Assembly (NCBI GenBank): GCA_963727625.1
Contig: CAVSHR010000009.1
Location: 160,001-224,000 of the forward strand
DNA from: an uncultured delta proteobacterium
Lineage (GTDB): Bacteria > Desulfobacterota > Binatia > UBA9968
Direction: 5' to 3'
Length of the DNA stretch: 64,000 bases
Shown here: piece after piece, positions 8,912 through 12,464 of the stretch
Numbering within the stretch: position 1 is the stretch's first letter
Layout of the letters: each line of letters begins with the position of its first letter
The notes under the pieces: model-generated
Database searches by the model: none
What the model was told of the DNA's origin: nothing
What the model saw: only the letters and a program-made list of their open reading frames with translations
Made by a program: the position numbers and the translations under genes

Positions 8912-10408
8912 ATGACGCATGCAGATAACAACCCTGCCGCCGCGCGATTTGCCTTCGACAATACCTATGCGCGCGAACTCGAGGGTTTCTACGTGCCTTG
9001 GAAGTCGGCGCAAGTGGCGCGGCCCAGGTTGATTAAGCTCAACCGTGAGCTGGCTGAAGAATTGGCGCTGGATGCCGGTGCTCTCGATTCCGAGGAAGGC
9101 GCAAGAATCTTTGCCGGCAATGAGACACCCGAGGGAGCGGTCCCCTTGGCCCAAGCGTACGCCGGCCACCAGTTCGGCGGCTTCGCGCCCCAACTTGGCG
9201 ACGGGCGGGCGCTGCTGCTGGGCGAGGTGATCGACCGCAGCGGACGTCGTCGTGACATTCAGCTCAAAGGTTCGGGCCCCACCCCCTTTTCGCGTGCCGG
9301 CGACGGCCGGGCAGCCCTCGGGCCCGTGTTGCGTGAATATCTGATCGGCGAAGCGATGCACGCGCTTGGTATCCCGACCACCCGGGCGCTTGCCGCAGTC
9401 GTCACGGGCGAGCCCGTCTATCGCGAGACTGCGCTGCCGGGCGCGGTTTTGACGCGCGTCGCTGCCAGCCACATCCGTGTCGGCACCTTCCAAATCTTCG
9501 CCGCCCGCGGCGAGGCGGGCAAGGTGCGTCGCCTGGCCGATTACGTCATCGATCGCCATTACCCGGAGCTGAAGGGCCACACGAACCCTTATCTGGGATT
9601 GATCGAGCGCGTGTGCGACCAACAAGCGGCGCTCATTGCCGGCTGGATGCATGTGGGCTTCATCCATGGCGTGATGAACACCGACAATATGGCGATCTCC
9701 GGTGAGACGATCGACTACGGACCATGCGCCTTCATGGATCATTATGATCCGGCCACCGTCTTCAGCTCCATCGACGCGCGCGGCCGCTATGCCTACGCCA
9801 ATCAGCCCAACATAGCGCAGTGGAACCTCGCGCGGCTGGCGGAGACGCTCTTACCCCTGATCGATGCTGATAAACACCGCGCCATCGCACGCGCCACCGA
9901 GACGGTCAACGCCTTTCCGGAACAATACCAACGCCGCTGGCTCAAAGGCATGCGCGCCAAGCTCGGCCTGATCGATGAGGACGAGGCCGACCTCAACCTC
10001 GCCGAGGGATTTCTCAAGGCCATGCAAGGCAACAAAGCCGATTTCACGCTGGCTTTCCGTTACCTCGCCGATGCGGCCTTAGGCCAGGAGAAATCACTTC
10101 GCGCGCTGTTTGCCGATCCGTCGGCCTACGATGACTGGAGCAGACACTGGCGGGCGCGACTTTCGCGCGAGGCGGTGGCACCTTCGGAGCGAGCGCAGGC
10201 GATGCGGCGCGCCAATCCCGCGTTCATTCCGCGCAATCATCGAGTCGAGGAAGCCTTGAGCGCTGCAGTGGAACGGGACGATTACGCGCCTTTTACGACG
10301 CTGCTGAATATCCTATCACGCCCCTTCGACGATCAGCCGGAGCTTGCCGCCTTCGCCGAACCTGCGCCGGAAGGACGCGAGCGCTACCAAACTTTCTGAG
10401 GCACATGA
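8912..10408 (+). CDS. selO: SelO/YdiU protein adenylyltransferase, predicted selenoprotein (Sec496, C-terminus YQTF-U-GT, 498 aa)
   Basis: [32 protein letters not shown] motifs; TTC TGA GGC ACA TGA at 10394-10408 matches the subfamily ending TFCGT. Confidence 0.9.
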
Positions 10409-10412
10409 CTCA

Positions 10413-10429
10413 CGCGTCCGGGTGACGCG
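10413..10429 (+). promoter_or_regulatory. Putative bacterial SECIS hairpin for selO
   Basis: CGCGTC-CGGGT-GACGCG; 13 nt separate UGA 10397-10399 from the stem; G in first two loop positions. Confidence 0.7.
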
Positions 10430-10533
10430 AAGAATTTTCCAGGGGAAAATTTGACACATTTGGATGGTCGCGCAATTCTTCCATCGAAACGAATCGCTTG
10501 TGGATGTTTGAAAAGGAGCTAGGTCGACGCGGC

Positions 10534-11289
10534 ATGGCGCAAAAATTCTACGTAGTATGGGCAGGGCGGCAGACCGGCGTATTCACTGATTGGGCGACTA
10601 CTCTGCGGGCCGTGGACGGGTATGCTGGGGCGCGCTTCAAGTCCTATCCGACCCGCGCGGATGCAGAGGAAGCTTTTCGCAGCGGCGCCGCAAGCGTTGG
10701 GCCCAAAACGCCGAGCAAGCAAAAGAGCGGCACAGATAATAGCGAACACCGCGCCGCGCATACCGCTCACCGGTTCGATGTCAGCATTTATTGCGACGGC
10801 GCCTGCGAACCCAACCCCGGCAATGCCGGCTCCGGCATCGTGGTGTATCGAGCCGGCAAACTCGCTGAATTATGGTATGGCCTGTACAACCCCATGGGGA
10901 CCAACAACACCGCCGAACTGAACGCGCTCTATCACGCCTTGCGCATGGCCGAAGCAGAAATCAAAGCCGGCCACACCGTCGAGGTGTGCAGCGACTCCGC
11001 GTACTCGATCAACTGCATTCGGAGTTGGGCACCGAACTGGGAAAAAAAAAGCTGGAAAAAACCCGGCGGCGAAATCAAGAACCTGGAAATCATCCAGGAC
11101 TGTTACGCGATCTACCGGCGCATTAAAAAAGAACTCACGCTCACCCACGTCGCCGGCCACGCCGGAACCGAAGGCAACGAGCTCGCCGACCGCATGGCCA
11201 TGCTCGGCGCGCAGCGTAAAGAAAAAAAACTGCGTCTGTATCGGGAAAAATTGCATATTCCGACGCTGCTCAAGCTGCGGGCGGGGTGA
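10534..11289 (+). CDS. rnhA: Ribonuclease HI with N-terminal hybrid-binding (caulimovirus viroplasmin-like) domain
   Basis: KFYVVWAGRQTGVFTDW N-domain; YCDGAC, TNNTAEL, SDSAY, HVAGHAG, GNELAD. Confidence 0.92.
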   Translation: MAQKFYVVWAGRQTGVFTDWATTLRAVDGYAGARFKSYPTRADAEEAFRSGAASVGPKTPSKQKSGTDNSEHRAAHTAHRFDVSIYCDGACEPNPGNAGSGIVVYRAGKLAELWYGLYNPMGTNNTAELNALYHALRMAEAEIKAGHTVEVCSDSAYSINCIRSWAPNWEKKSWKKPGGEIKNLEIIQDCYAIYRRIKKELTLTHVAGHAGTEGNELADRMAMLGAQRKEKKLRLYREKLHIPTLLKLRAG

Positions 11290-11369: not shown

Positions 11370-12464
11370 TTAATGCTTCCCCGTGGCCGAAACGTAGCCG
11401 GTCTCTGCTAATTTGCCGCCTCGCGCATTGTTCCCGCCGCCGCTCACCGATAACGATTCAGGCATATTGAACTTGCGCCGATAGGCGCTCGCCGTGAGAC
11501 CCGTGAGGCGCTTGAATAGGCGGCGGAAAAAAGTTGGGTCTTCGTAACCAACTTGCCAGCCGATTTCATCCACCGGAGCATTCGTTCGTTCCAACCGCCG
11601 CTTGGCGTCGTCGATGCGCAAGCGCTGGACATATTCGATGGGCGCGCATCCCGTCGCTTTCTTGAAGCGGCGCTTAAAGCTGCGCTCGGCGACGCCGGAA
11701 AGACGCGCGGCTTGCTCGACGGGGCGCGCTACCGAGAAGTGCCCGTTCAGCCATTTCTGGACCTCAATGATCACGGAATCGCCGTGATCCATCGCCGGCT
11801 CGAACATGACATAGGGCGACAAACCCTCGACGTGCCACTGAAAGGCAAAAAACTTGGCGATCCCTTGCGCGGCGGTTGGGCCGGCATGCTGAGAAATCAA
11901 GTACAAAATCAAGTCATGCCACGACGTCGATGCCCCCGACATGATAAATCGATCGCGCTCCCCGACTGCCACCAATGCTTTCTCGAGGCGCAAATGTACG
12001 TTGGGAAAATTTTTCCGAAAGGTTGGCCCGTAAATCCAGTGAAGCGTAGCTTCTTTACCATCCAACAAACCGGTTTCTGCCAATAAAAGCACACCGGAAC
12101 AGGTTGAACACAACTGCGCCCCTTTTTTATGCATATCCGTCAACCAACGGATGACGTTGGGGTACCTGCCCTTGTGCCACTCGCCTCGCTCAACGAGCAC
12201 CGAAGGGATGATAATCACATCGGTGAAAGTTACGTCCTCGATCCAACGCGTCACTGGGATCGGAATCCCGCTCGCTGTTTGCGCTACGCCGCGCTCTGTC
12301 GAAATAATTTCAACGTTGAATGGGGCTTCAAGTGGCAATGCATCATTGTATGTCGAGAGCAACGGAAAAGAGTTCAACACGTCGTATAGACCGATCAAGG
12401 TCGAAGCCATGACCTCGGGAAACACTAACAAACTAACATGGAGCGATTTTTTCCCGGTCACCAT
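11370..12464 (-). CDS. GlxA-family AraC transcriptional regulator (DJ-1/PfpI domain plus HTH)
   Basis: STCSG, GLLDGKEATLHW, VGYEDPTFFRRLFKR. Confidence 0.93.
   Translation of the reverse strand: MVTGKKSLHVSLLVFPEVMASTLIGLYDVLNSFPLLSTYNDALPLEAPFNVEIISTERGVAQTASGIPIPVTRWIEDVTFTDVIIIPSVLVERGEWHKGRYPNVIRWLTDMHKKGAQLCSTCSGVLLLAETGLLDGKEATLHWIYGPTFRKNFPNVHLRLEKALVAVGERDRFIMSGASTSWHDLILYLISQHAGPTAAQGIAKFFAFQWHVEGLSPYVMFEPAMDHGDSVIIEVQKWLNGHFSVARPVEQAARLSGVAERSFKRRFKKATGCAPIEYVQRLRIDDAKRRLERTNAPVDEIGWQVGYEDPTFFRRLFKRLTGLTASAYRRKFNMPESLSVSGGGNNARGGKLAETGYVSATGKH

Follow-up and report, generated by a model that had tools for sequence, protein, structure and literature searches.

Is the first in-frame TGA at the end of a bacterial SelO gene a stop codon, as gene callers take it to be, or is it read as selenocysteine (Sec)? 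This question is raised by a 64,000-nucleotide stretch of DNA from an uncultured delta proteobacterium (assembly GCA_963727625.1, contig CAVSHR010000009.1, positions 160,001 to 224,000 of the forward strand), hereafter called the window, in which a plus-strand gene at 8912..10408 ends with TAC CAA ACT TTC, a TGA at 10397-10399, the codons GGC and ACA, and, at 10406-10408, another TGA. An original prediction, made from the letters of the window, had given this gene end as Y-Q-T-F-UGA-G-T-stop, which the letters at 10397-10408 match exactly, and had proposed that the first UGA encodes Sec. We found that this proposal is supported by the pairing of Sec and Cys forms among relatives, by the Gly-Thr-stop that follows the TGA, by a hairpin linked to the TGA, and by Sec machinery in the genome. 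From this, we concluded that the product is very probably a 498-residue SelO/YdiU protein adenylyltransferase (AMPylase) whose antepenultimate residue is Sec (Y-Q-T-F-U-G-T).

We assigned the gene by its match to the Pfam family PF02696 (SelO) over residues 14-467 (E = 7.9e-119; 397.9 bits, where 22.8 is the cut-off; the match spans positions 6-464 of the 466 in the profile), and by matches of residues 8-496 to the solved SelO/YdiU structures 9jym, 6iii, 6k20 and 6eac (E of about 1e-104). When aligned with these four, the HGVMNTDNM block was identical to that of solved SelO and DYGP lay opposite DYGP or DFGP; we take the HGVMNTDNM and DYG/DFG-like blocks to be the catalytic ones of SelO. The gene is thus a predicted SelO/YdiU protein AMPylase, and it is single-copy in the genome (6.6 Mb in 15 contigs). 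Residue 496, the one specified by the TGA, lined up with the C-terminal Cys in all four solved sequences. With the TGA read as U the product has 498 residues and ends in YQTFUGT, and otherwise it has 495, as in the open reading frame listing, which stops at 10399. The expectation that gene callers would clip the last three residues was borne out by the database protein for the window, which is 495 residues long. Among the 120 closest database protein clusters, 45 end in TF or TY; annotation silently truncates these SelO proteins at the very residue thought to be regulatory.

For comparison with relatives, we assembled the window together with 80 loci from species-representative genomes and 80 metagenome loci, and retained one copy of every full-length gene, which came to 142 unique genes. 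Tabulation of the codon at 10397..10399, as the original prediction had suggested, gave TGA in 40 of the 142 and TGC or TGT in 102. SelO genes of at least 72% identity (n = 74) were divided into 40 with TGA and 34 with TGC or TGT, and all 68 of the more distant SelO genes encoded Cys at codon 496. SelO was found in 19 of 41 related genomes sampled, the codon being TGA in 12 (the window included) and TGC in 7. In a wider sample of 401 genomes from the phylum, SelO was present in 23 at E values up to 1e-20, and 20 C-termini were read: 10 ended in TFCGT or TYCGT, 9 in SCSS, and 1 was cut by a contig end, with no C-terminal TGA seen among them outside the window's clade.

The codons for Gly497 and Thr498 and the true stop (10400..10408, plus strand) were present as Gly-Thr-stop in 40 of 40 TGA forms. 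The Gly codon was GGC in 27, GGT in 11 and GGG in 2, the Thr codon was ACC in 37, ACT in 2 and ACA in 1, and the stop, always in frame, was TGA in 38 and TAA in 2. As the changes in the two codons past the TGA were synonymous only, this stretch behaves as translated sequence, and comparison shows these codons and the stop, as judged from the aligned genes, to be under purifying selection. The gene callers' reading, in which the TGA is a plain stop, is consistent with the 495-residue database protein and with the many clusters ending in TF or TY; it would make this a SelO three residues shorter that has lost its C-terminal Cys, and would leave the hairpin described below as a terminator or an mRNA-stability element. 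Conservation of GGN-ACN-stop in every TGA form, with synonymous changes alone, would be unexpected if these bases were untranslated.

We also considered whether the TGA could be an error of sequencing or assembly, or else a nonsense mutation that arose recently in one genome. Public metagenome contigs cover 9800-10312 and 10532-10598, and none covers 10313-10528, the interval that holds the TGA, which leaves room for such an error. Three soil-metagenome runs in two studies, one of them possibly the source sample, yielded pieces that match parts of the window at 99% identity or more, and none of 21 candidate sequencing runs contained half of the sampled words. The TGA is, however, shared by 11 further genomes of relatives and by 27 metagenome contigs, which refutes an error or private mutation for the clade, and we give this explanation a negligible probability.

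Five bases beyond the true stop lies a predicted bacterial hairpin of the selenocysteine insertion sequence (SECIS) type, at 10414..10430 on the plus strand. Its 6-bp stem pairs CGCGTC (10414-10419) with GACGCG (10425-10430) around the 5-nt loop CGGGT (10420-10424), so that the hairpin begins 14 nt, and its loop 20 nt, after the UGA. The original prediction had pointed to this hairpin, CGCGTC-CGGGT-GACGCG, and it is present, with its last base at 10430, one past the end coordinate given there. Folded alone in ViennaRNA, the hairpin reached -9.0 kcal/mol, and it was also part of the minimum-energy fold of the region.

Conservation of the hairpin, another point on which the prediction had hinged, proved to be linked to the TGA. 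We found GCGTC-NGGGN-GACGC at a fixed offset in 38 of 40 TGA forms, and the hairpin in none of the 102 Cys forms (0 of 34 close and 0 of 68 distant). In one TGA form (L152) the contig ends inside the hairpin, while another, on a metagenome contig (L157), has, where the hairpin would otherwise be, a different stem that is longer and more stable (-11.9 kcal/mol) and carries a GGU loop; this appears to be a SECIS that has been remodelled. Mean identity of the hairpin stretch was 0.90 among Sec forms and 0.52 in close Cys forms; for contrast, identity among Sec forms was 0.73 at neighbouring third codon positions and 0.42 in the next 17 bases downstream. Across the 38 hairpins, three G in the loop were constant, the first loop base was C in 37, and the fifth was any of the four letters. 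An exact copy of the hairpin core is found at no second place in the 6.6-Mb genome, and because it is unique there and is present in 38 of 40 TGA orthologues and 0 of 102 Cys orthologues, the hairpin is more than a chance fold.

Two other identities for this element were tried and rejected. As a terminator, it was not called by a consensus terminator scan, and the stem is not directly followed by a run of T; as a repeat element, its exact core is found only at this one place, and matches with one or two mismatches are scattered, none in a like context. The first of these results also bears on the plain-stop reading, under which the Cys forms would need a terminator too, yet the close Cys forms lack the hairpin altogether; SelA, moreover, was detected in 40 of the 41 relatives tested, a sign that the relatives keep the Sec machinery. 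With the TGA, the Gly-Thr-stop and the hairpin linked across 40 independent sequences, none of the three alternatives holds, be it a plain stop, a sequencing error or a terminator, and we consider it very improbable that the TGA merely ends the protein.

A 2026 review lists, as criteria for bacterial SECIS (bSECIS) elements, a loop of 3-9 nt, a stem of 4-16 bp, a G as the first or second base of the loop, a UGA-to-loop distance of 16-37 nt, and a minimum free energy of at most -7.5 kcal/mol (PMC13188914). The window hairpin passes on all counts, with a loop of 5 nt, a stem of 6 bp, G at loop position 2, a distance of 20 nt and an energy of -9.0 kcal/mol; that second base is followed by another G, in keeping with the early loop G that the original prediction gives as a trait of bacterial SECIS elements.

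Several observations weigh against reading the hairpin as a SECIS, and with it the TGA as Sec, in addition to the gap in contig coverage over the TGA. Energies of the Sec-form hairpins ranged from -7.2 to -13.9 kcal/mol, and 28 of 38 reached -7.5 kcal/mol in a 32-nt fold, the other 10 being weaker. The stem is short, with 5 bp in most relatives, and it is invariant, with no covariation or compensatory changes; because the stem does not covary, what backs its structure is conservation, together with the one rebuilt stem, that of L157. No Rfam match to 10300-10540 was found at E values up to 10, so that a curated SECIS model was left unmatched. The stretch after the UGA of selD, the other gene of this genome with an in-frame TGA discussed here, folds differently and has no visible resemblance to the SelO hairpin. 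Genome-wide, this type of loop after an in-frame TGA gave 7 matches, among which the one in SelO alone looked meaningful, and therefore no shared SECIS consensus was derived for this organism. Finally, bSECIS elements usually lie within the coding region (PMC13188914), unlike the window hairpin, which is wholly beyond the true stop. This position is forced, since just two codons lie between that for Sec and the stop. An engineered bacterial SECIS placed after a stop codon supports C-terminal Sec insertion in E. coli, which makes the arrangement feasible.

Three further observations were made around the hairpin. Many close Cys forms (L063, L079, L146 and L149, for example) carry a decayed look-alike at an equal offset past the stop, such as GAGTC-AGGGA-GACGC, which has a stem mismatch and a changed loop and no longer folds; it might be what remains of a lost SECIS, or else a SECIS precursor. 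The minimum-energy fold of the region also contained a second, A/U-rich hairpin of the UUUUCC-AGG-GGAAAA type at 10434-10450, whose sequence is not conserved in relatives. In L032/L035 (G018:C13:143336-144815), SelO is in two frames, split near residue 351-354, and the hairpin loop has 6 nt (an extra C); the split gene is either a pseudogene or an assembly error of the indel type.

Sec decoding also calls for selA, selB, selC and selD, and all were present in the genome, as had been proposed for checking. selA, selB and selD are adjacent and head to tail on another contig, outside the window (C5:715340-719466), with scores of 527 bits for SelA, 397.5 bits for SelB (cut-off 242) and 377 bits for SelD. 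The gene for tRNA-Sec is about 50 kb away (C5:768830-768924), as called by ARAGORN with anticodon tca and backed by Rfam RF01852 (76.7 bits; cut-off 47). selD itself holds one in-frame TGA (C5:718570, at AAG-U-AAKLGP), so SelD, too, is a predicted selenoprotein in this genome. Loss of the Sec trait was rejected as the cause of the Cys forms, since the seven related genomes with Cys-SelO all keep a full-length SelA (E of about 1e-157 to 1e-161).

In the mechanism that we propose, SelB with Sec-tRNA(Sec) would bind the hairpin at 10414-10430 as the ribosome meets the UGA at 10397-10399, the G-rich apical loop of the hairpin starting 20 nt past the UGA; Sec would be inserted, two more residues would follow, and termination would take place at the TGA at 10406-10408. 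Release factors and SelB compete at UGA codons in general, and decoding might be only partial, giving a full-length, redox-gated Sec form alongside an ungated form that ends at Phe495, in a ratio set by selenium supply and SelB activity. Such a mixture would extend Sec decoding rather than exclude it. It is suggested by the place of the UGA two codons before the stop, where termination would cost three residues and leave the kinase-like domain intact, and by the short hairpin with its modest range of energies. That Gly-Thr-stop and the hairpin are so strictly conserved speaks instead for selection on the full-length product, although a truncated by-product would still be compatible with it, and we therefore regard partial decoding as possible but rather unlikely.

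If residue 496 is Sec, which residue might it act upon? The activity of E. coli SelO is described in a 2020 review as controlled by a disulfide between Cys272, in the activation loop, and the C-terminal Cys476, the residue that is Sec in higher eukaryotes (PMC7278666). In the window, the candidate partner of Sec496 is also numbered Cys272, a TGC codon at 9725..9727 (plus strand) within DYGPCAF, at the start of the activation segment. This residue was Cys in 142 of the 142 unique relatives, and columns 272 and 496 were the sole invariant Cys/Sec columns in that set. Sec496 would be joined in a reversible selenenylsulfide with Cys272 of the activation loop, and this pair would constitute a selenium-based redox gate on AMPylation. 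The invariance of Cys272 makes this pairing plausible, and the E. coli Cys272-Cys476 disulfide, which joins the like two regions, suggests it by analogy.

The two partner residues are not in equivalent positions, however, and this counts against the pairing. E. coli Cys272, in FICNHSD, aligns with Phe284 of the window, 12 residues past the DYGPCAF Cys, while Cys272 of the window aligns with Phe in both E. coli and P. syringae. Among the 142 relatives, the Phe284 column was not one of the Cys-bearing columns (a column being listed if it had at least 5 Cys). We also searched for these motifs in more distant members with a pattern that matched 10 of 22 loci: among TFCGT/TYCGT members, D[YF]GPCAF was present in 8 of 8 matched, and one distant member with Tyr at the position of the DYGPCAF Cys has the HICNHSD Cys instead.

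The absence of the E. coli-type partner Cys is in line with a different role, in which Sec496 acts between molecules, bonding for a time to a target protein or to a low-molecular-weight thiol as a selenenylsulfide, as has been proposed for human SelO. The human protein is described as forming, through its C-terminal CxxU, an H2O2-dependent complex with another protein (PMC3994087). Such a role does not account for a Cys272 that is invariant throughout the TF[C/U]GT subfamily, when the other subfamily has an aromatic residue there together with the FICNHSD/HICNHSD Cys, and we consider it the less likely of the two, though a real possibility. The Cys272 pattern looks like a relocated intramolecular partner, and the two roles are mutually compatible. 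We therefore retain pairing of Sec496 with the DYGPCAF Cys272 as the best available hypothesis, one that we judge nearly as apt to be right as wrong.

We next turn to how Sec and Cys are distributed within the clade. In a quick tree of 84 sequences, comprising the 74 clade members and 10 outgroup rows and built without the last 9 residues, Sec and Cys forms were interspersed. Parsimony on this tree gave 14 Sec/Cys changes, 2 of them forced by well-supported branches, and the two deepest clade branches as well as all 10 outgroup rows were Cys. We claim neither a direction nor a number of switches. Position -5 (window 10382-10384, Arg) held a second Cys in 26 of the 34 close Cys forms, giving C-Y-x-T-F-C-G-T; in the 40 Sec forms, the same position was Arg in 28, His in 11 and Ser in 1. 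An independent-pairs test of this association had 2 usable pairs and no power. A partial gene outside the set of 142 (L034) had Cys at -5 together with TGA.

Putting these observations together, it is conceivable, albeit doubtful as a whole, that the TF[C/U]GT SelO of this clade gained Sec independently of eukaryotes and of the bacterial case described below, by way of a minimal SECIS in the 3' untranslated region (3'-UTR), and that this genus-level clade alternates between Sec496 with the SECIS and no nearby Cys, and Cys496 with the -5 Cys (C-x4-C) and a decayed hairpin. If so, one selenol would be functionally traded against a dithiol, and selenium supply could decide between a redox-gated, full-length AMPylase and an ungated form three residues shorter.

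Some loci held only part of a SelO gene. In L036 (G004) and L037 (G003), a second frame of about 97 codons lies 3-5 kb from a full-length SelO, has TFCGT at its end and matches SelO, at 69-70% identity, over residues ~409-498 only; a free-standing fragment of the C-terminus, or a duplicate of part of the gene, seems likely. L060 (G251:C471:4178-4810) is an N-terminal fragment at a contig end, covering residues 11-220 at 57% identity, with an in-frame TGA far from the C-terminus. As for the neighbours of SelO in the window, two NMT1-like substrate-binding proteins are encoded upstream, and downstream are an RNase H1 carrying the N-terminal RNase H1 domain (Cauli_VI) (10498-11289, plus strand) and a DJ-1/PfpI-AraC fusion regulator (11370-12464, minus strand). 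No functional link to SelO was evident among these flanking genes.

The background on which the original prediction drew agrees with what we found: relatives do end in TFCGT, E. coli SelO is described as having a regulatory disulfide (PMC7278666), and the end of human SelO is given as CVTUSS (PMC3281104). According to a family survey from 2012, SelO has Sec in Metazoa and in a few small eukaryotes and nowhere else (PMC3281104), and the 2020 review cited above speaks of an invariant Cys in SelO of all prokaryotes (PMC7278666). In 2025, the text of the deep-Sep paper reported Sec-containing SelO homologues as first found in certain bacteria, naming Desulfosediminicola ganghwensis, along with homologues that have TGA, others that have Cys, and a bSECIS prediction (PMC12013277), and the 2026 review lists a selenoprotein O-like protein under PF02696 (WP_136798779.1; PMC13188914). 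Neither SelO nor Binatia is mentioned in the main text of the BSepDB paper, and no further report of a bacterial Sec-SelO was found in the literature searched, whose supplements and figures may list this clade. The predicted Sec-SelO of the window is therefore not the first in bacteria, as the 2025 computational report precedes it (PMC12013277). It is a new and unusually well-replicated case, from a large Binatia-like lineage of soil bacteria that is distinct from the published one and seems to be abundant, and in which Sec and Cys forms are mixed.

The clade supplies dozens of natural Sec/Cys SelO pairs, at 78-90% identity, in organisms with Sec machinery, and hence a ready setting in which to study how selenium contributes to redox control in a protein AMPylase. 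Its hairpin is a compact and readily testable candidate for a bacterial SECIS located past the stop codon.

Compared with known systems, the window gene is closest in kind to the SelO-like gene of D. ganghwensis, in that both are bacterial members of PF02696/COG0397 with an in-frame TGA, Cys homologues and a predicted bSECIS, and both were recognised computationally. The lineage differs, being Binatia-like here (the relatives bear the names of Candidatus Binatia and Deltaproteobacteria metagenome-assembled genomes), and as the paper text leaves the position of Sec in D. ganghwensis unstated (PMC12013277), the two may share or differ in the residue, the C-terminal subfamily (TF[C/U]GT or the SCSS type) and the SECIS. 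With human and other vertebrate SELENOO, the window protein shares the family, a Sec third from the C-terminus (Uxx>) and a proposed redox role, whereas SELENOO has a eukaryotic 3'-UTR SECIS and a CxxU motif, and the window gene has no Cys near Sec and a small hairpin through which decoding would depend on SelB. With SelO (YdiU) of E. coli, Salmonella and P. syringae, it shares the AMPylase/UMPylase fold, the catalytic blocks and a C-terminal Cys opposite Sec496; those proteins, in contrast, have Cys and end in SC plus two residues, where the window protein has a predicted Sec and belongs to the TF[C/U]GT type. From the E. coli type of redox-gated SelO it retains the Cys/Sec third from the end, but not the partner Cys of FICNHSD. 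Relative to the consensus bSECIS of the bSECISearch model, finally, the window hairpin lies within the constraints, and it differs in being placed after the stop and in having no Rfam match.

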